Shown here: piece after piece, positions 1 to 10,018 of the stretch
Numbering within the stretch: the first letter of the stretch is position 1
How the letters are laid out: every line of letters begins with the position of its first letter
Virus record (IMG/VR): IMGVR_UViG_2695420596_000012
DNA: 10,018 nt
Origin: a virus
Lineage: Duplodnaviria > Heunggongvirae > Uroviricota > Caudoviricetes
Reading direction: 5' to 3' (one strand)
Program-made: the position numbers and the translations under genes
Notes under the pieces: model-generated
Databases searched by the model: none
What the model saw: the letters and a program-made list of their open reading frames with translations, nothing else
Told to the model about the DNA's origin: nothing

Positions 1-573
1 ATGTTTTGCGAAGAAAAAGTAGCTCAAATGGCTGCATACCTACTTCTTAAGAGAGGTGGGCGCATGGCATATCTGAAATTGATGAAGCTGCTCTATCTGT
101 CTAACCGCCAGTCGATTTTGAAGCATGGCAGGATGATCGGCGAAGATAGCCTTTACTCTATGAAATTTGGACCAGTCATGTCGAATACGCTGAACTTGAT
201 TCGCGGTAAGGCTGAAGGCATTGGTGACTACTGGTACAACTTGATAGAGACGAACGGGCATAATGTATCGTTGCGTTCAGATCCGAGGGAAATGGATGCA
301 GACGAGGTCTTTGATGAATTGAGTCGTGCAGATATCCGGATTTTAGATGAAATCTATTCTCGGTATGGGCATATGAACCGATTTGATCTCGCAAATATGA
401 CGCATTTAGAAAGCGTTTGTCCAGAGTGGCACGATCCTGGCAATTCTCGTAAGCCTATAGACCTGAAAGAAATGCTGATCAGTGAGGGTAAAAGCGAGGA
501 TGAGGCTAATCGCATAATTGGCAAAATGGAAGAATCTCAGAAACTTAAGGAATTTTCTTTGCAATTATCATGA
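1..573 (+). CDS. Panacea-domain (DUF4065) protein, SocA/GepA/PanA-like putative antitoxin; 190 aa. Start coincides with window edge, so the true 5' end could lie upstream.
   Basis: Translation MFCEEKVAQMAAYLLLKRGG..YLKLMKLLYLSNRQSIL..FGPVMSNTLNLIRG matches the remembered Panacea-domain pattern (A.yfl...KL.KLlY...GPV). Stop TGA 571-573 overlaps the next ATG (ATGA), indicating translational coupling. Confidence 0.65.
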   Translation: MFCEEKVAQMAAYLLLKRGGRMAYLKLMKLLYLSNRQSILKHGRMIGEDSLYSMKFGPVMSNTLNLIRGKAEGIGDYWYNLIETNGHNVSLRSDPREMDADEVFDELSRADIRILDEIYSRYGHMNRFDLANMTHLESVCPEWHDPGNSRKPIDLKEMLISEGKSEDEANRIIGKMEESQKLKEFSLQLS

Positions 574-989
574 CGGATTATCAGCCATACAGGAAAGGAA
601 CTGTGCTTGCCCCAACTGGACCATGCAATCATCTTCATGTGATTTGTAATGATCCTGTTTATTACCCCGTTAACGATTGTTATTGTGTTTTAGTTGTTAA
701 TATTTCTAGTATCAAGGATGGTGTCCCCCACGATCCGTCTTGCGTCTTGAATTCTGGTGATCATCGCTTTATCAAGCATCCAAGTTATGTTGTTTACGCT
801 GAAGCTATAATTTGGCGAGTGGATAACATGGTTAGAAAGCAGCGATCGGGTGAGATTTCTGTTCATGATGATATGCCAGAAGCTACATTCAATAGAATTC
901 TGGACGGTTTTGATATCTCTGATGAAGTTACGCCAAAGAACCTTAAATTTAAAAATAAATATTGCGTATCATCTATTGATGATGAGTAA
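570..989 (+). CDS. Hypothetical 139-aa protein, translationally coupled to the Panacea-domain gene; candidate toxin partner of unrecognised family, Cys/His-rich N-terminal half.
   Basis: ATG at 570 overlaps upstream stop by 4 nt. No Shine-Dalgarno of its own, consistent with coupling. No TM segment and no motif I recognise; CNHLHVIC...DCYC...H..C pattern hints at metal binding. Confidence 0.5.
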   Translation: MTDYQPYRKGTVLAPTGPCNHLHVICNDPVYYPVNDCYCVLVVNISSIKDGVPHDPSCVLNSGDHRFIKHPSYVVYAEAIIWRVDNMVRKQRSGEISVHDDMPEATFNRILDGFDISDEVTPKNLKFKNKYCVSSIDDE

Positions 990-1028
990 ACAACAGGAAT
1001 TGTTTCGGTATAACTTCTGGAGTTTTCT

Positions 1029-1202
1029 ATGGAAGATCAAAAAGCAACCAAGCCACAGCTTAAGTTCGACACAATGAAAGCATTCGCAGGTATGGGGGCT
1101 GCTGTTGAAGTTCTGATGAAGGCTGCTCCTAATGCGTTCACTCACGCTACTGTCTCTGGTAAAGAGCAGCAGGGTAAGCTTCGTCGTCGCAAAGCAGCAT
1201 GA
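1029..1202 (+). CDS. Small hypothetical protein, 57 aa (MEDQKATKPQLKFDTMKAF...GKLRRRKAA), not in the supplied ORF track; last gene before the terminator.
   Basis: ATG 1029 preceded by GGAG (1019-1022) with 6-nt spacer. Open to TGA 1200-1202. Followed 20 nt later by a strong intrinsic terminator. Confidence 0.4.
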   Translation: MEDQKATKPQLKFDTMKAFAGMGAAVEVLMKAAPNAFTHATVSGKEQQGKLRRRKAA

Positions 1203-1220
1203 TCATAGCTGGTGCTTTTT

Positions 1221-1250
1221 GAAAACCCGCCTTTAGGCGGGTTTTTTCTT
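1221..1250. terminator. Rho-independent terminator between convergent operons; stronger in the + direction.
   Basis: Stem AACCCGCC (1224-1231), loop TTTA, stem GGCGGGTT (1236-1243), then T-run 1242-1247. On the minus strand the same hairpin is followed by TTTTC. Sits between the + ORF ending 1202 and the minus ORF whose stop is at 1250-1252. Confidence 0.75.
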
Positions 1251-1531
1251 TAGTGATGTTCTTTGCCCTTCTGTTTGCCTGTTCTGACCTGTTCCCACTC
1301 GATACGTCCTTCTTCTCGTCTTTTGTCTATGTATTCCGCAAGATCCTGAATATTGATGCAACGTTTTGCTTTTTGTGATGTGCCGATGCGATATGTTGGA
1401 ACGGGCAACTTACAAGCGTTTGCTTTTGCTTCTGCTGTGGCTGGACTCATACCAAAGTACTTTTGGCTAACTGCTGAGAGTTCAATGTTTGAGGTATTGA
1501 ATTCAGCCATCAGTAAAAACAAGGTGTTCAT
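1250..1531 (-). CDS. Small DNA-binding protein resembling the pyocin-activator PrtN / excisionase-like family; 93 aa from the ATG at 1529-1531.
   Basis: Minus-strand ORF. ATG (MNTLFLLMAEF...) preceded by GGAG with 6-nt spacer; upstream in-frame codons lack a comparable RBS. Segment KLPVPTYRIGTSQKAKRCINIQDLAEYIDKRREE resembles the PrtN-family signature from memory. Confidence 0.5.
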   Translation of the reverse strand: MNTLFLLMAEFNTSNIELSAVSQKYFGMSPATAEAKANACKLPVPTYRIGTSQKAKRCINIQDLAEYIDKRREEGRIEWEQVRTGKQKGKEHH

Positions 1532-1571
1532 AAATTTCTCCATTATCCCGGCTGCACCCGAGGGTAATATA

Positions 1572-2438
1572 TTAATTAATAGCATCTTTGCTCTGAAGTA
1601 CAGCAAATGCCATTAATACCTCTAAAGTATATCGTCTATAAAACTTAACGAATCCAACATAAAAAACATAGACGAAGAAAAAGCTAAGTAGCGTCGAAAT
1701 AGAAATATAAGACACCGCCCCACCTTCTATAGCACGATAAATTAATGTTAGAAATGATATCCAAAATGTAATTACAAATACTAAACAAATATTTCTGCAA
1801 AAACCATATAATGCAACATAGTTTTGAATTTTTGTTTGATGTTGATTAGAAAATTCATAGACGTAATGATAAGCCAATCTGAAAAGATCATCATGAAGAC
1901 CTGTCCTGATGTTTAATAATTTATCGTCTATTCTGAATTTTTTTTCATAACCTTCTTTGATCATTAGCCATGTGGTATTAGCTAATTGAAATGGCAATGA
2001 TTGTGAATAACATAGTTTTTGAGTGGCGTAATCCCATGGTATTATCGGGAATAACATTACTTTGATTATGCAGTATTTTATTTTTCTCTTTGTGTCTTCG
2101 TTCTGTTTGTCACTTGATGGTGTTAAGACGTTTTTTTTGTCATCTGATAACTTATTAAATAGATATTCTGACGGATATTGCAATTCTTCGTTCATATATT
2201 TTTCAATAAAAAATGCGGATGTGATAGATATAAAGTGTCCAGCTATGTAAGATATGATTACTATTGAACCATAGTTCAAAATGCCAAAGATTTGACTTTG
2301 ACCTCTGAGCAATTCAGTTAAGTCAATAACAATATCTAGATCGAATGTCAAACCACAGAAATACATTAATAGGATAAAAAAACCACCTGGTATTAAATAT
2401 CCAAGAAAGTCATAGAATGAGAATGGATTTTGATTCAT
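1572..2438 (-). CDS. AT-rich integral membrane protein of unknown function: two N-terminal and two C-terminal predicted TM helices around a ~130-aa soluble core; 288 aa from ATG.
   Basis: Minus-strand ORF. The track's first codon is TTG; the in-frame ATG at 2436-2438 has GGAG with ~7-nt spacer. Hydrophobic stretches FLGYLIPGGFFILLMYFCGL, IFGILNYGSIVIISYIAGHFISITSAFF, ALYGFCRNICLVFVITFWISFLTLIY, YISISTLLSFFFVYVFYVGFV. Region is visibly far more AT-rich than its flanks. Confidence 0.6.
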   Translation of the reverse strand: MNQNPFSFYDFLGYLIPGGFFILLMYFCGLTFDLDIVIDLTELLRGQSQIFGILNYGSIVIISYIAGHFISITSAFFIEKYMNEELQYPSEYLFNKLSDDKKNVLTPSSDKQNEDTKRKIKYCIIKVMLFPIIPWDYATQKLCYSQSLPFQLANTTWLMIKEGYEKKFRIDDKLLNIRTGLHDDLFRLAYHYVYEFSNQHQTKIQNYVALYGFCRNICLVFVITFWISFLTLIYRAIEGGAVSYISISTLLSFFFVYVFYVGFVKFYRRYTLEVLMAFAVLQSKDAIN

Positions 2439-2546
2439 TGTTGCTCTCCAATAATTTTTCAATTTGTAATATAACCTATATCTATATGTTAATAAATTAC
2501 TTATATGTTCTTTTATGGCAGAGTTTGAATTCGTACGTGCTGATTT

Positions 2547-3071
2547 TTACGACTCAGTTAACTCTTTAAAGCGTTCCATAAACATCCCATAGGCATGGCC
2601 TGGCGACAGTGGAATAACTTTGAACATCTCTGTTGCCGGGATACCTTCCAGTACAGGCCAGAAAGAGCCATCATCAAGCCCGAGATCGCGGCGTTCGGTT
2701 GCCAGCATGATGAGATCGGCATATTTCACAGGCGTGCTCATAACCGTGGGTAACCCGTATTTCTCACGGATTACGGCGTCTATTTTTTCTTCCATCCGTT
2801 TATAGTCAGGAAGAAGACGTTTCAGCGGCGTGGGGATGTCCTGGCAATACGCTTCTGTTGCATCATGCATTAACGCTTCAAAAGCAAATTCCTGCGGCAC
2901 CAGCTGGCTGCAAAGCACCGCATGTTGGGCGACACTGTAGAAGTGTGAAAGATGACCGGCAAAGCGACAGATATTTGAAAGGGAAACCGCGATATCGTTA
3001 ATCACGATGTCGTCTTTATTTATCCTGTCATAATAAAAATGCTTCCCGGAAAAAGTTTTAATAAATGACAT
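2547..3071 (-). CDS. yfdR: HD-domain phosphohydrolase of the YfbR/YfdR 5'-deoxynucleotidase-like family; 174 aa from ATG.
   Basis: Minus-strand ORF. ATG at 3069-3071 preceded by GGAG with 6-nt spacer; the track's longer version starts at GTG. Motifs SVAQHAV and LMHDATEAYCQDIPTPLK resemble the YfbR H...HD...D signature (HDASEV..DLPTPVK). Symbol assigned from length and gene order matching my recollection of K-12 CPS-53 yfdP-yfdQ-yfdR, not from a search. Confidence 0.7.
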   Translation of the reverse strand: MSFIKTFSGKHFYYDRINKDDIVINDIAVSLSNICRFAGHLSHFYSVAQHAVLCSQLVPQEFAFEALMHDATEAYCQDIPTPLKRLLPDYKRMEEKIDAVIREKYGLPTVMSTPVKYADLIMLATERRDLGLDDGSFWPVLEGIPATEMFKVIPLSPGHAYGMFMERFKELTES

Positions 3072-3164
3072 TTTGTTCTCCGCGTATATGTGCTGCACCA
3101 CGCTGAATTCTGGTAAAAGGAAGCCCTCACCATCCGGCGATTATTGAGTCAATTACGTTTCCAT

Positions 3165-3186
3165 AAATGCCCCCGCAGGGGCATTT
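3165..3186. other. Perfect 9-bp-stem hairpin between the YfdQ-like and YfdR-like genes; possible weak terminator, attenuator or RNA-stability element.
   Basis: AAATGCCCC (3165-3173), loop CGCA, GGGGCATTT (3178-3186). Only short A/T flanks, no long U-tract. Confidence 0.4.
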
Positions 3187-3198
3187 GCAGTAATGAAA

Positions 3199-4023
3199 TC
3201 AGGCGGTGAAAGTACCAATAAAGGTTTCTACTTTGCTGTCTTTGAATTTCTCAACAAGCAGATCACGAAATTCGTTAGCCATTTCTTCCTGCACCGCCTC
3301 CAGCTGAATAATGCGCAGAACCAGTACAGGACGATCGCCAGTGATAATGCTGAGGCGTAATTTAAATGGACGTTCTTTCAGACCTTCAAACGGAACGCAT
3401 TTAAATTCAAATGCCACTGGCATAATATCTTTGGTTTTCGCTTCGACAGACTCCATCAGGGAGCGTTTGCCGCTGAAGTCATTATCTTCAAAATCAGCGG
3501 TCTGGTTTGCTTCAATCGTGATTTTACGGACAGCCGCAGCCGCTTTTGTTGCCTGAATAGCGTCACCATTAGCATCAAAGCCCACAAGGTAGTCGGCCCA
3601 GTCTTCAATCCATTCTGCCAGTGACTTCTGGGAATGACGCTCGCCATTAACAGACAACAGAGCAGAGAACGGTGCTGTCTTTTTCAGTTTGAGAGTGGCA
3701 GTGTTATCTGCGTGACCTGGCTCATCAATAGTACCCAGGTTAAGCACACTGACGGCACGCATATTATCGGCATCGATAAAGCAGCGGGTGCCTTCATCTG
3801 CAAGATCTTTAGAATAACGAGTAAAGTCATCGATGCTGGCAGTGGAAAGCGCACCACGGAAACGGAAACGATTTAAATTAAATTTTTCCAGATCATGAAT
3901 GCGGAAATTCTCAGGCAATGCCACAGCATCGGCACCAATCTTACTGATAATTTCATTAACACCCTGAGCAGAAATAAGGGCATGGATTTGATTAATTGCG
4001 GTTGCGTCTAAGTTCTGAGACAT
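3199..4023 (-). CDS. yfdQ: YfdQ-like (DUF2303-type) prophage protein, 274 aa.
   Basis: Minus-strand ORF with ATG at 4021-4023 preceded by GAGGA with 6-nt spacer. Length and position between a 120-aa upstream gene and an HD-domain downstream gene match my recollection of K-12 YfdQ. Family assignment is from memory. Confidence 0.65.
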
Positions 4024-4088
4024 AATAAGTCCTCACTATATAAAAATATTCAGTGATGAGAGAAATAATCAGTTTATTAAAAACGATA

Positions 4089-4451
4089 TTAATGACCTGC
4101 TGCGCGGAGTTTTCCGTCAGGTTCACCGGCAAGAGTCAGTAATTGTCCCTGGTCTTCCTGCAGAATAGTCAGGCGACCACCGCGATTGACATACATCGGC
4201 GTTTCGGTGGTGTCTTCTTCGGAAATTTTCCCGCGGTTAGTCGGGCGAACATATGAGAGTTTGTGTTTGATTTTCACACGGTTCTCATCAAATGGTTCGA
4301 TTTCCAGGTTGAGCGAGACCTTACCTTTGGTTTTCGTATTCATCACACCGGAAGCGACTTCACTGAGAACAGCGCCGATTTTGGTTTCAAATACGCCGCC
4401 GTCCAGCTCCCCGATAAATGCCTGCACATCAGTACTGCGTTCGCTAGCCAT
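4089..4451 (-). CDS. yfdP: YfdP-like prophage protein, 120 aa, starting MASERSTDVQ; first gene of the leftward operon.
   Basis: The track ORF 4089..4637 carries a 62-codon N-terminal extension I consider non-coding. ATG at 4449-4451 has GAGGAG with ~7-nt spacer. Symbol by length and synteny only. Confidence 0.55.
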   Translation of the reverse strand: MASERSTDVQAFIGELDGGVFETKIGAVLSEVASGVMNTKTKGKVSLNLEIEPFDENRVKIKHKLSYVRPTNRGKISEEDTTETPMYVNRGGRLTILQEDQGQLLTLAGEPDGKLRAAGH

Positions 4452-4499
4452 TTTGCTGCTCCTCATCATATCGACCCTGCAAGGTCGGTTGGTTTCTCC

Positions 4500-4598
4500 A
4501 CAAAACAGAGAAGAACACCTGCGGTGGCAGCCGCCCGGATGGATTGGGTTATGAGCCCGTCGGCCGGTGATGCTCTTCTCTGTTTTGTAAAAAGAGCG
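4500..4598 (-). promoter_or_regulatory. Candidate nut/put-like leader element: boxA-like motif followed by a long stem-loop in the 5' leader of the leftward operon.
   Basis: Minus-strand CGCTCTTTTTA (complement of 4588-4598) directly abuts a 15-bp perfect inverted repeat, ACAAAACAGAGAAGA (4500-4514) and TCTTCTCTGTTTTGT (4574-4588), separated by 59 nt. Lies ~50-150 nt upstream of the YfdP-like start. Confidence 0.3.
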
Positions 4599-5079
4599 GT
4601 ACCAGCCGGAAGCAAGTGTACAAACTGGTACCGCCAAAGCAGTGGCTGTTGTGGTGACCGGTGCTGATCTCCGGCTTGCGGTTATTTCAGACTCTCACGG
4701 GCGTTTAATTGCCCCGCCGAACAGCTCTTTTCCGCAATAGCTGCAATGTCTTTCGCGCATCAGCCTGCGCATTCACCACAACGCTGAGAGCACTTAGCCA
4801 GTTACGGCACCACACTTTGTCGCGGTTCCATAAATGCCCTCATCGTTGCACCCTGGTCTCTTCCCAGGTGTCAAACCGAACCGCCACGCTGGTTAGGCGT
4901 CTTATCAGCATCATCATTGACTTGCACATTCCGGCTACCTGGTTTGTTTGCTCGAGCAAGGAGTGGATTGTCCCCTTTAACGTCCCCAGACCGCTAACGA
5001 CGCATGTGCCATACGCCGTGTTACAACCAAATTTTGTTAGTACCTTGTTTGTTTGTCTGGAAAGAAAGATAAAATGAAG

Positions 5080-5118
5080 TTGCGCATTATGCAAGTGTTT
5101 TTATTGCGAGATATGCAA
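5080..5118. promoter_or_regulatory. Two operator-like palindromes (putative OL) and probable leftward early promoter region.
   Basis: TTGCGCATTATGCAA (5080-5094) and TTGCGAGATATGCAA (5104-5118), both TTGC-N7-GCAA, centres 24 bp apart. A third copy of the same motif lies in the cI-cro intergenic region. Confidence 0.45.
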
Positions 5119-5130
5119 TTTAAAGGGTAA

Positions 5131-5152
5131 TGAAAAGCCACCTTTGGGTGGC
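5131..5152 (-). terminator. Intrinsic terminator just downstream of the repressor gene (minus strand).
   Basis: On the minus strand: stem GCCACC, loop CAAA, stem GGTGGC, then TTTTC (complement of 5133-5152). Begins ~20 nt after the cI stop at 5174. Confidence 0.55.
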
Positions 5153-5173
5153 TAATTGATGAGGAGGTAAGGG

Positions 5174-5866
5174 TTAATTGTGTCGCTTAAGGGTTTGTGA
5201 CTGGCTGATTAAGACCTTTCCAAAGACCATAAACCGGTGTTCATTTTCGCTGGTAATTCCCCATTCACGGTAAATCTGGTTATCAGAAATCACCAGTAGT
5301 TTGTCAGGTATCATTTGCAGTCGTTTGACATAAATTTTATCATCAAAACCAAATACATAGATACCATCTCCATCAAACTGATTGATACTGACATCAACGA
5401 AGATGAGATCTCCTGGCTCAATGGTTGGACACATACTGTCCCCACGAACGTTGATAACTTTAATGTGATTGGCTGGCCGTCCGCCAAACATCGATACAGC
5501 ATTATCAGTTCTGTATTCAATGGCATGAATCACATCAATGACATCACCGCCCTGGATAAGGCCATTTCCCGCACTGGCACTGACATCCAGCATTTCAATA
5601 CGGAATACATCCTTCACCTGCGCAACATCCTCACTAATACTGTTTTTACATACAGTATTACTTTTGACGTCTGAGGTAAAGAGATCAGCAATATCAACAC
5701 CTAAGCTCCTGGCAATATTACTCAGGGCTTGTTCAGTGAATTGTTTCTGCTTACCTGTTTCCAGGCGTGAGATATTCGCCGCATCCACTCCTATTGCTTC
5801 AGCGAGATCGGCGATTTTCATGTTCTTCGCCTGGCGAAGTTGTCTGACTCGGTTTCCTATGTTCAT
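5174..5866 (-). CDS. cI: CI-type prophage repressor: N-terminal HTH (XRE type) plus C-terminal LexA-like S24 autopeptidase; 230 aa.
   Basis: HTH segment MKIADLAEAIGVDAANISRLETGKQ. Ala-Gly cleavage site in SASAGNG. Catalytic-Ser motif VRGDSMCPTIEPGD and Lys in YVKRL. Divergent from the Cro-like gene. ATG at 5864-5866 has almost no SD. Confidence 0.9.
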   Translation of the reverse strand: MNIGNRVRQLRQAKNMKIADLAEAIGVDAANISRLETGKQKQFTEQALSNIARSLGVDIADLFTSDVKSNTVCKNSISEDVAQVKDVFRIEMLDVSASAGNGLIQGGDVIDVIHAIEYRTDNAVSMFGGRPANHIKVINVRGDSMCPTIEPGDLIFVDVSINQFDGDGIYVFGFDDKIYVKRLQMIPDKLLVISDNQIYREWGITSENEHRFMVFGKVLISQSQTLKRHN

Positions 5867-5963
5867 GCGTTTATTACATTTCTTTATTGCGCGTTAAGCA
5901 AATCAACTTGCGCAAAATATTTGCGTGAAATAATATGCTCATCACGCAATATGTGGAGGTCAT
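5867..5963. promoter_or_regulatory. Divergent immunity promoter/operator region (OR with PR- and PRM-like promoters).
   Basis: 97-bp cI-cro spacer containing TTGCGCGTTAAGCAA (5887-5901, TTGC-N7-GCAA) and further TTGCG half-sites at 5908 and 5921. Candidate rightward -35 TTGCGC (5908-5913) and -10 TAATAT (5931-5936) with 17-bp spacer. GGAGG at 5955-5959 before the cro ATG. Confidence 0.5.
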
Positions 5964-6224
5964 ATGCAATCACCATTACGGAATGTGCGTAAGGCGCACG
6001 GATTTACTTTGCAGCATGTTGCTGCTGGCGTTCAGGTCAATCCAGCGACGCTGAGTCGTATTGAAAGACTGGAACAAATTCCATCTATCGATCTTGCAGA
6101 ACGTCTGGCCAATTTTTTTAAGGGTGAAATCAGCGAAATGCAGATTCTTTATCCGGCACGTTTTCAATCTAGCCAAAACCAGAATGGGTTTAAACCACAG
6201 GAACAGGAGGTAAGCCGTGGGTAA
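5964..6224 (+). CDS. cro: Cro-like small HTH regulator, 86 aa.
   Basis: HTH segment FTLQHVAAGVQVNPATLSRIERLE. Divergent from cI across the operator region. GGAGG with 4-nt spacer before ATG. Confidence 0.8.
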   Translation: MQSPLRNVRKAHGFTLQHVAAGVQVNPATLSRIERLEQIPSIDLAERLANFFKGEISEMQILYPARFQSSQNQNGFKPQEQEVSRG

Positions 6225-6774
6225 TCATCACTGGAAAGTGGAAAAACAGCCTGAGTGGTACGTGAAAGCTGTCAGAAAAACTATCGCGGCGTTGCCGGAG
6301 GGTTACGCTGAAGCTGCTGAGTGGCTGGATGTAACAGAGAACGCATTATTTAACCGCCTTCGTGCCGATGGCGATCAGATTTTCCCGCTGGGATGGGCAA
6401 TGATTTTACAACGTGCTGGTGGCACTCACTTCATTGCTGACGCTGTGGCGCAGTCTGCAAATGGCGTCTTTGTGTCTCTTCCTGACGTCGAGGATGTGGA
6501 CAATGCCGATATTAACCAGCGTTTACTGGAAGTCATTGAACAGATCGGCAGTTATTCAAAACAGATTCGTTCAGCAATCGAAGACGGTGTAGTGGAACCG
6601 CATGAGAAGACAGCAATTAACGACGAACTGTATCTTTCAATTTCGAAGCTCCAGGAGCATGCAGCACTGGTCTACAAAATCTTCTGCGCTCCAGAAAATA
6701 GTAACGCCCGCGAGTGTGCAGCTCCGGGCGTCGTGGCGTCGATTGCTTCTGGTTGTGGAGAAACTAACGCATGA
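6217..6774 (+). CDS. CII-position early regulatory protein (YdaT/CII-like by position), 185 aa, GTG start; function not established from sequence.
   Basis: GTG 6217 preceded by GGAGG (6206-6210) with 6-nt spacer. Overlaps the cro 3' end by 8 nt. Stop overlaps the next ATG (ATGA at 6771-6774). Confidence 0.6.
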   Translation: MGNHHWKVEKQPEWYVKAVRKTIAALPEGYAEAAEWLDVTENALFNRLRADGDQIFPLGWAMILQRAGGTHFIADAVAQSANGVFVSLPDVEDVDNADINQRLLEVIEQIGSYSKQIRSAIEDGVVEPHEKTAINDELYLSISKLQEHAALVYKIFCAPENSNARECAAPGVVASIASGCGETNA

Positions 6775-7099
6775 ATAGTTTAACGGCAAATAACCGTTTG
6801 TCGCAACAGCTGGTGGTCAGCGTCGCTGAACACCTGTTGTTACGGCATGAATGCAGATTACCAAATCACCTGGCTGTAAGTAACCACAGAGAACTTTACC
6901 TGACTGTGGGGGGCGAGTTGTGCAGGAACTTAACCGCTGGTTTCGTGACGGAAGAGGGCTTTATGTCCATGTTATTCGTTGGGAGCCAGAAACACAGCGC
7001 GTTATCTATCTTCGCAAAGACTACCCGCATGAGTGCTTTAGTCCTTTGTGGAAATTCAGGCGTGATTTTGTTGAGTGTGAAGGACCACCAGCATATTGA
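6771..7099 (+). other. Alternative model: ~109-aa product made from frame 0 (6771-6913) joined to the -1 frame (6914-7099) at a G6 tract; frameshifted gene, programmed -1 slip, or homopolymer sequencing error.
   Basis: Heptamer G GGG GGC (6908-6914) is in X XXY YYZ register for frame 0. The -1 frame opens at 6884 and translates to a protein-like sequence (RVVQELNRWFRDGRGLYVHVIRWEPETQRVIYLRKDYPHECFSPLWKFRRDFVECEGPPAY) ending TGA 7097-7099. Confidence 0.3.
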
Positions 7100-7931
7100 T
7101 TCTGCAATTCCGGGACGTTACACTGCTCAGGCACCTTATAAAGCGGGTGCCGGGATTGGCGTCCTGAAATTGTCAACGGCGATGTATGACGCGCCAGCGT
7201 CTTTTTTATCGTCCGCATTTGCTCACATCCAGATTATGGTGGGCTGGGCGGGGGCACCGAAAGGTGCGCCGGTCTCCGTTGACGCCGGTTACGCCAACCC
7301 CGTCCAGTTCACCACCAGTGAAATTGGCGTTTCCGGTGGTGGAAGTTTTTCACTGTCAACGGAGGCTGCCATCATGGCTACGATCCCAGCCCTCACCCAA
7401 CCTGAAATCACCATTGACAACGGCCAGGCCGTTACCACTTCTTTGGCTGTTGCCAACTTCTTCTCCAAGCGTCACGACGATGTGCTGAAAAAGATCCGCA
7501 CTCTGGATTGTTCCCCAGAGTTTTGTGCCCGCAATTTTGCGGAGACATCGATTTCGGTAAATCAACCGAACGGTGGTACACGCAAGCTCCCTTGCTATCA
7601 AATCACACGAGACGGTTTTGCGTTTCTTGCTATGGGTTTCACGGGTAAACGTGCTGCCCGGTTCAAAGAGGCATACATAAATGCCTTTAACCAGATGGAG
7701 AAACAGCTTTCAAAGCCCGCTGTACCGAGCGACGTTGCACATAACGCCAGCGTTCTCTGTTCCTACATTTCATCAATTCATCAGGTCTGGCTGCAGCAGC
7801 TTTATCCTATGTTGGCAAAAGCCGAATCTCCGCTGGCTGTTAGCTTATATGACTATATTAATGATGCTTCGGCGCTGGCCAGTCTCATAAATTTGTCGCT
7901 GAACCCTTCAGAGGTAAGGGGGCGCAAATGA
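6771..7931 (+). CDS. Long ORF (386 aa) whose C-terminal half is a Rha-family phage regulatory (antirepressor-like) domain; N-terminal ~200 codons are of doubtful structure, and the Rha core probably starts at ATG 7374.
   Basis: Residues from AVTTSLAVANFFSKRHDDVLKKIR to YQITRDGFAFLAMGFTGKRAARFKEAYINAFNQME match the Rha-domain signature from memory. Internal ATG 7374 is preceded by GGAGG (7361-7365). ATG 6771 is coupled to the upstream stop. Frame 0 has no stop between 6771 and 7931. Confidence 0.45.
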   Translation: MNSLTANNRLSQQLVVSVAEHLLLRHECRLPNHLAVSNHRELYLTVGGELCRNLTAGFVTEEGFMSMLFVGSQKHSALSIFAKTTRMSALVLCGNSGVILLSVKDHQHIDSAIPGRYTAQAPYKAGAGIGVLKLSTAMYDAPASFLSSAFAHIQIMVGWAGAPKGAPVSVDAGYANPVQFTTSEIGVSGGGSFSLSTEAAIMATIPALTQPEITIDNGQAVTTSLAVANFFSKRHDDVLKKIRTLDCSPEFCARNFAETSISVNQPNGGTRKLPCYQITRDGFAFLAMGFTGKRAARFKEAYINAFNQMEKQLSKPAVPSDVAHNASVLCSYISSIHQVWLQQLYPMLAKAESPLAVSLYDYINDASALASLINLSLNPSEVRGRK

Positions 7932-8152
7932 TCCGGAATATTTTCAAACGGTTTACCAATCATACTTTCCGTTGTCCTCGTCCGGGTCAGTGGTACACCA
8001 CGCCTGCTGGGCATGTTCTACGTGTTAGCCTGGTTGACCGTGAATGTCAGAAGGTGGTTTGTGAACCGCTGGGCCGTAATTACCGCGTCAGTATGCCGCT
8101 TATAGCCTTTTGCTCCGGAAAAATGTTTAAGCGTCTGGGAGGTGTGGCGTGA
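7928..8152 (+). CDS. Hypothetical small protein, 74 aa, with four Cys (possible small metal-binding fold).
   Basis: ATG 7928 overlaps the upstream stop (ATGA). Cys at CPRPG, RECQKVVC and AFCSG. Confidence 0.45.
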   Translation: MIRNIFKRFTNHTFRCPRPGQWYTTPAGHVLRVSLVDRECQKVVCEPLGRNYRVSMPLIAFCSGKMFKRLGGVA

Positions 8153-8290
8153 ACTGTTTTCAGTTTGTGTGCGGATGTGCTTTCGATAACCCGATTCAGC
8201 GCCTGATTATGTTGCGTGTTTTGATGTCGGGTTCCGGACTACAGCCCACTCCATATCTGATTTAATACACTATCCCGGCCGGGAGGAATA

Positions 8291-10018
8291 ATGACATTTA
8301 AACATTATGATGTTGTCAGGGCGGCGTCGCCGTCAGACCTTGCGGAAAAGCTGACACACAAACTGAAAGAGGGCTGGCAGCCGTTTGGTAGTCCGGTGGC
8401 CATAACCCCTTATACCCTGATGCAGGCGATTACAGCAGAAGGTGATGTGGTGGTCAGTGGTGCAACTGAGCCGGATTGGTACTACGTCATCGTACTGGCC
8501 GGGCAGTCCAATGCCATGGCTTACGGTGAAGGGCTTCCGCTGCCGGATTCATACGATGCTCCGGATCCGCGCATTAAACAGCTGGCGCGCCGCAGTACAG
8601 TTACGCCGGGTGGGGCTGCATGCAGATATAACGATATTATTCCGGCCGACCACTGCCTGCATGATGTGCAGGATATGAGTACGCTGAATCATCCGAAGGC
8701 AGACCTGAGCAAAGGGCAGTACGGCTGTGTCGGCCAGGGCTTACATATTGCCAAAAAACTGCTCCCGTATATCCCGAATAACGCGGGGATCCTGCTGGTA
8801 CCATGCTGTCGTGGTGGTTCGGCATTTACCCAGGGCGCGGAGGGGACATTCAGTGCGGACACGGGGGCCAGCCAGGATTCGGCGCGCTGGGGTGTGGGTA
8901 AACCGTTATATCAGGACCTGATTGCGCGCACCAAAGCTGCATTACAGAAGAACCCGAAAAATGTGTTGCTGGCGGTGTGCTGGATGCAGGGAGAGTTTGA
9001 CATGAGCGCCGCCACCCACGCACAGCAACCTGCGCTGTTTACAGCCATGCTGACACAGTTTCGTGCTGACCTCTCCGTGTTTAACGCGCAGTGCCATGGT
9101 GGCAGTGCTGCAGATGTGCCGTGGATTTGTGGTGACACGACGTATTACTGGAAAAATACCTACGGCACCCAGTACAACACCATTTACGGGGCGTACAAAA
9201 ACAGGGAGAGTGAGGGCGTTTATTTTGTGCCCTTCATGACAGACGGTAACGGCGTCAATACCGCCACTAACGCGCCGGCAGAAGATCCGGATATTCCGGC
9301 ATCAGGATATTACGGTGCGGCATCGAGAACGAATGGAAACCAGGTATCATCAAACCGCCCGACACATTTCAGTTCATGGGCGCGCAGGAGCATTATTCCG
9401 GATCGTCTGGCAACCGCTATTCTGAACGCAGCCGGGCGCACCTCAGCCTTCATCAGTGGTAAGGCACCGGAAATCAAACCCTCGCCCGGCGGCAACACGC
9501 CATCGGGTCCGTCTGCAGATACGTCCGTTCGCACAATCTCCCTGCTGCCGGCAGCCGGAGAGGCTGCTGCGCAGGGCTGGAGCATTAAGGATGGCGGAAT
9601 TCAGTTGTCAGATGGTGTATTTAAGATCACCAAGCAGAGCAATAAAACCTGGTCCCTGACGCATCCGGTGGATGACGCAATTACCCTGCTGACACAGGGC
9701 GGCAGACTGAACTGTAAGTTCCGCCTGTCAGGCGCACTGACCAACAATCAGTTCGGGCTGGGGATTTATCTGTATACGGATGCTCCCGTTCCTGATGGTG
9801 TGGCGATGACGGGTACCGGTAATCCGTTCCTGATGTCGTACTTCACTCAGACCACTGACGGCAGAGTGAATCTGATGCATCACAGGAAAGCCGGAAACAC
9901 GAAGCTGGGGGAGTTCGGCGATTACGGTAACGACTGGCAGACGCTGGAGCTGGTGTTCACCGCCGGCAGTGCCACGGTTACTCCGAAACTGAATGGAGTG
10001 GCTGGCCCGGCATTCCAG
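8291..10018 (+). CDS. Prophage-type sialate O-acetylesterase-like protein (NanS-p-like): N-terminal DUF1737, SASA/SGNH hydrolase domain, C-terminal beta-rich probable carbohydrate-binding region; 3'-truncated by window end (576 codons visible).
   Basis: Hand translation from ATG 8291 (GGAGG at 8282-8286) is open to the last base; absent from the ORF track, presumably because no stop falls in the window. Motifs VLAGQSNAMAYGEG (SGNH block I) and WMQGEFD (SASA W-QGE-D). N-terminus MTFKHYDVV...EGWQPFG resembles DUF1737. Confidence 0.8.
   Translation, partial: MTFKHYDVVRAASPSDLAEKLTHKLKEGWQPFGSPVAITPYTLMQAITAEGDVVVSGATEPDWYYVIVLAGQSNAMAYGEGLPLPDSYDAPDPRIKQLARRSTVTPGGAACRYNDIIPADHCLHDVQDMSTLNHPKADLSKGQYGCVGQGLHIAKKLLPYIPNNAGILLVPCCRGGSAFTQGAEGTFSADTGASQDSARWGVGKPLYQDLIARTKAALQKNPKNVLLAVCWMQGEFDMSAATHAQQPALFTAMLTQFRADLSVFNAQCHGGSAADVPWICGDTTYYWKNTYGTQYNTIYGAYKNRESEGVYFVPFMTDGNGVNTATNAPAEDPDIPASGYYGAASRTNGNQVSSNRPTHFSSWARRSIIPDRLATAILNAAGRTSAFISGKAPEIKPSPGGNTPSGPSADTSVRTISLLPAAGEAAAQGWSIKDGGIQLSDGVFKITKQSNKTWSLTHPVDDAITLLTQGGRLNCKFRLSGALTNNQFGLGIYLYTDAPVPDGVAMTGTGNPFLMSYFTQTTDGRVNLMHHRKAGNTKLGEFGDYGNDWQTLELVFTAGSATVTPKLNGVAGPAFQ

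Follow-up and report, generated by a model that had tools for sequence, protein, structure and literature searches.

A lambdoid dusA prophage that has very probably lost its replication-to-Q region by a single internal deletion

The 10,018-nt stretch of DNA analyzed here (the window; virus record IMGVR_UViG_2695420596_000012, Caudoviricetes) very probably corresponds to the 10 kb next to attL in an mEp460/SfV-like lambdoid prophage of Escherichia coli inserted at dusA, in which a single internal deletion of 7,789 bp has placed an esterase gene behind the early-right operon. Gene calls were based on an open reading frame (ORF) map and profile searches (Pfam, PHROGs, and NCBIfam), and the prophage itself, a widespread one, was identified by megablast against complete E. 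coli genomes and phages. Coordinates are window positions unless L001, the numbering of the intact-relative locus, is stated.

The window lacks 7,789 bp of an otherwise near-identical prophage

Positions 1-8234 align with 183540-191773 of E. coli E2 (NZ_CP104509.1) with two mismatches, and positions 8235-10018 align with 199563-201346 of the same chromosome with one mismatch. Both matching stretches lie in the same orientation within the same prophage, 7,789 bp apart, so that exactly this length (L001 15136-22924) is absent between 8234 and 8235 relative to the intact relatives. Near-identical prophages inserted at dusA are found in E. coli strains from chicken, from cattle, and from other sources, both halves of the window being ~99.9-100% identical to them. 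Moreover, the strains that best match the left half also best match the right half, with 100% identity on both sides for Z1323CEC0008 and Z1323CEC0018, which argues for a deletion inside one prophage and not for a join of two. The alignments show directly that the two halves are collinear, where the breakpoints lie, and which genes were lost.

In E. coli E2 and the Z1323CEC chicken isolates, the order and orientation of immunity region, Rha module, 74-aa ORF, and esterase are those of the window, and the identity is ~99.9-100%. The E2 prophage (NZ_CP104509.1, ~183.3-231.6 kb) lies between a displaced 5′ fragment of dusA, found ~250 bp ahead of the point that corresponds to window base 1, and, ~48 kb away, the integrase adjoining dusA. 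The start of the window corresponds to the Panacea gene of the E2-type prophage, a few hundred bases inside its dusA′ end, and beyond the esterase the E2 prophage runs on to lysis, head, and tail genes, integrase, and dusA.

The junction shows a TTC microhomology at 8232-8234, where the left parent reads GGGTTC and the right parent GGCTTC (5/6 bases). The parental sequences are ...GTCGGGTTC|TTCAGACGG and ...TCAGGCTTC|CGGACTAC, and the window reads ...GTCGGGTTCCGGACTAC. Because only TTC is common to both parents at this point, the junction has the hallmark of illegitimate recombination. An origin by homologous recombination of co-resident prophages was also considered and was rejected, given that just 3 bp are shared.

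Immediately to the left of the junction, between the 74-aa ORF and the esterase gene, lies the stump of the first replication gene, comprising codons 1-28 of a 99-aa ORF (8149-8234, plus strand; with the same sequence as L001 15050-15135). In its complete form, the ORF has a match to phrog_4617, "replication initiation protein," with an E-value of 4e-29, and the stump reads on to a stop codon at 8263-8265, giving a fusion ORF of 38 aa (8149-8265). On the right side, a residual 56 bp of the upstream region of the esterase is retained (8235-8290, plus strand), including at 8236-8248 the right arm of a 13-bp perfect inverted repeat. The right breakpoint is immediately 5′ of this arm, the left arm and the loop being deleted. 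In the intact relatives, the complete repeat, with a loop of 21 nt, precedes the esterase at L001 22892-22938.

Also, a 14-nt perfect inverted repeat, TTTCAGTTTGTGTG / CACACAAACTGAAA, flanks the junction at 8158-8171 and 8355-8368, its arms being 61 nt to the left and 120 nt to the right. Both arms pre-exist ~8 kb apart in the intact relatives; the chance expectation for 14-nt arms within 250 nt of a given point is ~2e-4, for an observation made post hoc.

The initial annotation of the window, made without database searches, had offered an internal deletion leaving a cryptic prophage, or else an atypical genome layout, as the reason for the direct juxtaposition of immunity genes, Rha, and esterase. 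The first of these proposals is borne out, both halves being collinear with one prophage that carries 7,789 bp more and the truncated replication ORF being the scar. The second finds no support. As for the juxtaposition, it is abnormal in its absent replication-to-Q block, but Rha right after the gene at the CII position is normal in the mEp460 group.

Gene content of the lost segment

The 7,789-bp block carried by E2-type prophages and absent from the window begins with the replication genes, includes Q, and reaches as far as the tRNAs and TerB. At its left end, it contains the last 70 codons of the 99-aa phrog_4617 ORF, followed by a gene for a 331-aa replication initiator or DnaD-like loader (phrog_270, E-value of 2e-77). 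Inside this gene, a 12-bp unit is repeated in 3.7 copies (TACAGAGATTAC; L001 15894-15937), encoding TEITTEITTEITTE, and this iteron-like array is the probable replication origin. The genes for the Dam methylase, RusA, a KilA-N protein, and DUF968 are lost as well, and so are the Q antiterminator gene (PF06530, E-value of 2e-51) and the region downstream of it, late promoter region included. The remainder of the loss comprises a 148-aa minus-strand ORF, a 65-aa ORF, an AraC-type regulator, TerB, DUF3927, three tRNA genes (tRNA-Ile and two tRNA-Arg), and, just upstream of the esterase, two strong terminator hairpins with 9-bp stems (L001 22739-22760 and 22858-22879).

Pfam, PHROGs, and NCBIfam give no match to replication initiators, Nin-region genes, or Q for any ORF of the window, in which no tRNA gene is present either. 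The initial annotation had likewise recognized no replication, NinR-type, or Q gene, although it overlooked the stump at 8149-8234; its gene order of cro, CII-position gene, Rha ORF, 74-aa ORF, and NanS-p-like gene was found at the coordinates it gave.

The intact layout is seen in all eight genomic contexts listed for the identical Rha protein, where the 74-aa ORF is followed by the 99-aa and 331-aa ORFs, RusA, KilA-N, DUF968, and Q. Dam is present in seven of them, a group II intron taking its place in the eighth, and the esterase is downstream of Q wherever the locus extends far enough. This canonical order, which is also that of mEp460, indicates that the event was a deletion in the window and not an insertion in its relatives. 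With only three differences between its flanks and the intact relatives in ~10 kb, the deletion would be recent.

Other strains with the same prophage (H1, NZ_CP148461.1, and the loci L005, L006, and L007) show independent lesions, namely an insertion of the IS481 family in the Rha region, in the Dam region a group II intron (RVT_1/GIIM) as well as an element of the IS3 family, and cI and dam genes that are split. Decay has struck this prophage lineage repeatedly, ongoing decay being the norm.

Alternative origins of the junction

Megablast against 5,426 complete E. coli genomes, with either 5100-10018 or a 211-bp junction probe as the query, did not recover the junction. Its exact 39-mer was absent from the JGI metagenome contigs and from the GTDB species representatives, which hold one genome per species and carry little weight here, and the 38-aa fusion ORF was absent from a gene-position index. 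Being absent from all the collections searched, the junction appears to be strain-specific.

This same uniqueness weighs against a deletion within the prophage, for the junction is known from this one sequence alone. On the same side of the balance, the window ends inside the esterase, so that the rest of the prophage, the integrase, and possibly the 7.8-kb block at another place lie beyond it; moreover, we infer the loss of function from gene content. An assembly or chimera artefact, in which reads or contigs from the intact prophage or from two co-resident lambdoid prophages were mis-joined, would also explain a junction unique among all the collections, and esterase genes, with a median of 2 and up to 14 copies per E. 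coli genome, are a known source of assembly trouble. However, mis-joins arise at long repeats, whereas the parents here share 3 bp (5/6 bases) and no repeat, and both sides come from one prophage lineage in the same order and orientation. An artefact is therefore very unlikely.

It could also be argued that the element is a rearranged yet functional phage, with its replication and Q modules placed elsewhere or supplied from outside the window, given that lambdoid phages are mosaic and that only 10 kb are visible, the genes past the esterase being out of view. Nonetheless, the 28-codon stump of a replication gene stands precisely at the junction, the flanks are ~99.9-100% identical to a prophage of canonical order, and in E2 the genes beyond the esterase are all for lysis, packaging, head, tail, or cargo functions, a second replication or Q module being absent, all of which makes this explanation highly improbable. 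The opposite polarity, where the short form would be ancestral and the E2-type prophages would have gained 7.8 kb by insertion, has nothing in its favor beyond the formal symmetry of insertions and deletions, and its probability is close to negligible. In this case, a conserved phrog_4617 ORF would have to be already truncated at codon 28 in the ancestor, the extra block would have to arrive as a canonical lambdoid replication-Nin-Q region ordered as in the isolated phage mEp460, and the boundaries show neither a target-site duplication nor mobile-element ends.

The annotated Rha ORF appears to be a composite

The ORF annotated as Rha (6771-7931, plus strand; 386 aa, with a Phage_pRha domain in Pfam) appears to be composite and over-called. 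The probable true gene is a Rha-domain antirepressor-like gene of 185 aa (7374-7931, plus strand), which matches Phage_pRha at its residues 21-110 (E-value of 2e-28) and anti-repressor PHROGs. In a comparison with the Salmonella phage ST64B, the differences at the three codon positions of the 386-aa frame are 26/19/67 for codons 202-386, a coding-like pattern, in contrast to 12/25/20 for codons 1-116 and 33/37/38 for codons 117-201, which are not coding-like in that frame. The segment 6771-7373 does not behave as coding in the annotated frame, and it instead holds regulatory RNA genes and a small DUF4222 gene. An alternative in-frame ATG is located at 7236, 46 codons before the ATG at 7374 and with no stop codon between them, and it would correspond to orf45 of Gifsy-1; the codon positions of this stretch do not show a coding-like pattern.

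The DUF4222 gene is an unannotated ORF of 59 aa with a GTG start (6920-7099, plus strand), which is read in another frame than the 386-aa ORF and matches PF13973 (E-value of 9e-14) and, over its full length, phrog_1343 (E-value of 2e-36). It is kept in ST64B, where 14 of 21 differences fall at its third codon position. This ORF also matches weakly phrog_1153, the family of the 74-aa ORF (E-value of 0.008), and BLASTP between both ORFs gives an E-value of 0.088, a hint that the two could be paralogous.

Two RNA genes are recognized upstream of the 185-aa gene. The first one, at 7131-7207 (plus strand), is an isrK-type small RNA (Rfam RF01394, 62.2 bits for a gathering score of 50), which ends in an intrinsic terminator at 7188-7207 and carries the a1/b1 targets of C4 at 7156-7179. 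For this target region, the c4-a1b1 family (RF03163) gives a match of 22.5 bits, below its gathering score. Read by eye, a possible isrK promoter is formed by TTGATT (7096-7101) and TACACT (7119-7124), with a spacing of 17 nt; a generic promoter scan did not report it, 8 of 12 positions being matched, which is under the cut-off of the tool. The second RNA gene, at 7232-7319 (plus strand), is a C4-type antisense RNA (Rfam RF01695, 81.4 bits for a gathering score of 45), whose fold shows compensatory changes across four phages in 8 of its 27 pairs, with none broken. Downstream of it, the a2/b2 targets of C4 (7324-7365, plus strand) comprise TTGGCGT at 7324-7330 and GTCAACGGAG at 7355-7364, the latter overlapping a Shine-Dalgarno sequence (GGAGG, 7361-7365) 8 nt before the ATG at 7374.

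In a complementarity search, the C4 segments CTCCGTTGAC and ACGCCAA are complementary to the isrK sites, to 7324-7330, and to 7355-7364. Moreover, a comparison of mEp460 with the window shows concerted changes in both C4 recognition segments and all four targets. Such a joint change of recognition segments and targets is the heteroimmunity pattern of the C4 RNAs of P1 and P7. With both RNAs above their Rfam thresholds upstream of an antirepressor-type ORF and with targets that covary, isrK and C4 would control the 185-aa Rha antirepressor in a module of the type already described for Gifsy-1 and P1. The same isrK/C4 pair is found in mEp460, ST64B, and Stx1_699, and the module has no annotation in the RefSeq relatives. 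Database entries that read "Rha family phage regulatory protein, 386 aa" are widespread, span the two RNA genes and the hidden DUF4222 ORF, and should be corrected throughout this phage group.

Residues 117-212 of the 386-aa frame (7119-7406) also match the Pfam family Phage_ASH (PF10554), and this segment, whose substitutions do not follow a coding pattern, coincides with the DNA of isrK, C4, and the C4 targets. The "Ash" domain match is probably a translation of conserved RNA genes.

The 74-aa ORF that follows (7928-8152, plus strand) is a conserved partner of the Rha gene, of the type of SfV orf38, and matches phrog_1153 (E-value of 4e-44), a family of unknown function. It has no match in Pfam or NCBIfam, and its single-sequence AlphaFold model is poor (pLDDT of 54). 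The finding of a divergent replication or antitermination protein at 6771-7373 or in the 74-aa ORF would have spoken against the deletion, as the initial annotation pointed out. This was tried, and no homology to such proteins appears for either in Pfam, PHROGs, or NCBIfam; furthermore, 6771-7373 consists of regulatory RNA genes and a small DUF4222 gene, and not of a gene for a protein of either kind.

Immunity region and left end of the window

The immunity region contains a CI-like repressor gene on the minus strand (5174-5866), with an N-terminal helix-turn-helix domain (HTH_3/HTH_26/HTH_31) and a C-terminal S24 autopeptidase domain (Peptidase_S24, E-value of 6e-19), whose counterpart in E2 is annotated as an XRE family regulator. 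Divergently from it, the plus strand encodes a cro-like helix-turn-helix protein of 86 aa (5964-6224; HTH_3, E-value of 6e-10), in the position of the putative Cro of mEp460. Next, at the CII position, a 185-aa protein of the YmfL / Phage_CP76 family (6217-6774, plus strand; PF06892, E-value of 7e-13) also matches phrog_101, "CII-like transcriptional activator" (E-value of 3e-70), and the NCBIfam model NF041471 for YmfL (165 bits), and it is a putative CII-like regulator.

Two exact palindromic sites of the form TTGCG-N6-GCAA are found to the left of cI (5080-5118, starting at 5080 and 5104), and the cI-cro intergenic region (5887-5949) contains another exact site at 5887-5901 and a site with one mismatch at 5935-5949. 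Given their position and the matching sites on the other side of cI, those at 5080-5118 are read as putative OL operators, the cI-cro region being the putative OR. The divergent pair of a CI-type gene (helix-turn-helix plus S24) and cro, the repeated operator-like sites flanking cI, and the regulator at the CII position are together the features of a lambdoid immunity region.

The ~0.5 kb between yfdP and cI (4640-5170), where the putative OL sites lie, has the highest GC content of the left half (0.54). The RefSeq annotation of the relatives has no gene there, mEp460 has two small annotated plus-strand ORFs (gp36 and gp37) at the equivalent position, and no N-like gene was recognized in this segment.

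At the extreme attL end, a SocA/Panacea-domain protein of 190 aa (1-573, plus strand) is followed by an overlapping ORF of 139 aa with no family match (570-989, plus strand); this pair may be a toxin-antitoxin or defense pair. Further inside, 1572-2462 (minus strand) is a very AT-rich island, with a GC content of ~0.29-0.31 compared with ~0.45-0.5 in its surroundings, which stands where mEp460 has an exonuclease/DUF551/Ea22 block. It encodes a predicted membrane protein of 296 aa with a subthreshold match to SieB (E-value of 0.0014), and appears to be an acquired gene of the exclusion or moron type.

The esterase gene

The right end of the window is occupied by a sialate O-acetylesterase gene of the NanS-p type on the plus strand, which starts at 8291 and continues beyond 10018, 576 of its 616 codons being inside the window. 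It shows DUF1737, SASA, and DUF6645 domains and matches E. coli NanS (PDB code: 3pt5, E-value of 4e-121) and the NanS-p C-terminal domain (PDB code: 6yp6, E-value of 2e-23). The predicted product would combine a catalytic domain and a NanS-p C-terminal domain with an N-terminal DUF1737, as expected for a NanS-p-type esterase. The gene is 100% identical to that of the same prophage in Z1323CEC0008 and Z1323CEC0018.

Consequences for the prophage

Illegitimate recombination at TTC would have removed, in a single deletion, everything from codon 29 of the first replication gene to a point 56 bp upstream of the esterase. The immunity switch (CI with S24, cro, and YmfL), the RNA-controlled Rha module, the 74-aa ORF, and the esterase have been kept, and presumably also the downstream lysis and structural genes. 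Essential lytic modules are lost in comparison with a collinear intact relative, and a recognizable scar is left. With initiator, origin, and Q gone, no lambdoid-type replication or activation of late genes would be expected; judging from gene content, the element could no longer replicate or switch on its late genes via Q and would be a defective (cryptic) prophage that still confers immunity. Also, no terminator-like site is predicted in 7460-8700, so that transcription that previously reached the replication genes should now continue into the esterase gene.

One might ask if the deletion was selected as a rewiring, with the esterase, and presumably the lysis cassette too, joined to the early-right operon. 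If so, the result would be a non-replicating module repressed by CI and controlled by C4/IsrK, in which an SOS or antirepressor signal would lead to expression of the esterase and its release from a lysing subpopulation. We consider such a rewiring, as opposed to plain decay, very unlikely. As read here, the event is ordinary, recent, strain-specific decay in a known prophage family, and it is in itself of little weight because E. coli prophages are commonly disabled by internal deletions that spare immunity and cargo genes. In practice, prophage inventories of the source strain should list the element as defective. Moreover, the esterase would here be without its normal Q-dependent control, which is relevant to studies of nanS-p expression.

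Comparison with known systems

The closest isolated phages share the early-right organization of the window. In mEp460 (NC_019716.1), SfV, cdtI, and ST64B, the order cI, cro, YmfL-like gene, isrK/C4/Rha, and 74-aa ORF is the same, and the identity to mEp460-type phages is ~95% over most of 1016-8144. Likewise, the CII-position gene of mEp460, SfV-type phages, ST64B, and Stx1_699 is separated from the replication genes by a Rha/Ant gene and a small ORF. In mEp460-type phages, what comes next is a replication protein, Dam, RusA, KilA-N, DUF968, and Q, all of which the window lacks. Other differences concern mEp460 itself, which has another C4 specificity, a different replication gene (HTH_36/DnaD_N, 272 aa), and no esterase annotated between Q and the holin.

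A second comparison concerns the RNA module. In Gifsy-1 (isrK-orf45-anrP), IsrK switches on translation of the antirepressor, and IsrK has been related to SeqA of P4 (PMC4825925). As in the window, the modules of Gifsy-1, P1 (immI c4-icd-ant), and P4 (seqA-CI-seqC) consist of an isrK RNA with its terminator, a C4-type RNA, and an antirepressor-type ORF, and the C4 segments complementary to upstream sites and to the downstream ribosome-binding-site region are a further likeness. Nonetheless, the positions differ: the module of the window type belongs to the early-right operon, where the CII-position gene precedes it and the replication genes follow it, and that of Gifsy-1 lies downstream of antQ. 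Also, unlike in Gifsy-1, the orf45-equivalent frame of the window is fused in frame to the Rha ORF.

With respect to the esterase, the NanS catalytic and NanS-p C-terminal domains are common to the window and to the NanS-p proteins of Stx phages (933W type). The location of nanS-p in the late region beyond Q, which the initial annotation had stated, agrees with the literature (PMC10462455) and with the intact relatives; in these, as in Stx phages, the esterase is downstream of Q and upstream of the holin (PMC10462455). The intact relatives differ from Stx phages in that TerB and DUF3927 precede the esterase, and no stx genes are present. In contrast to the Stx phages, the esterase of the window is without Q, the late promoter region, and the upstream terminators, and it follows the early operon.

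Finally, the cryptic lambdoid prophages of E. coli K-12 (e14, Rac, DLP12, and Qin) are remnants that keep some regulatory and cargo genes after internal deletions, e14 carrying the ymfL gene that gives the family its name. These remnants are old, heavily eroded, and fixed in their lineage, whereas the deletion described here would be single and recent, with three differences from the intact prophage in ~10,000 bases.

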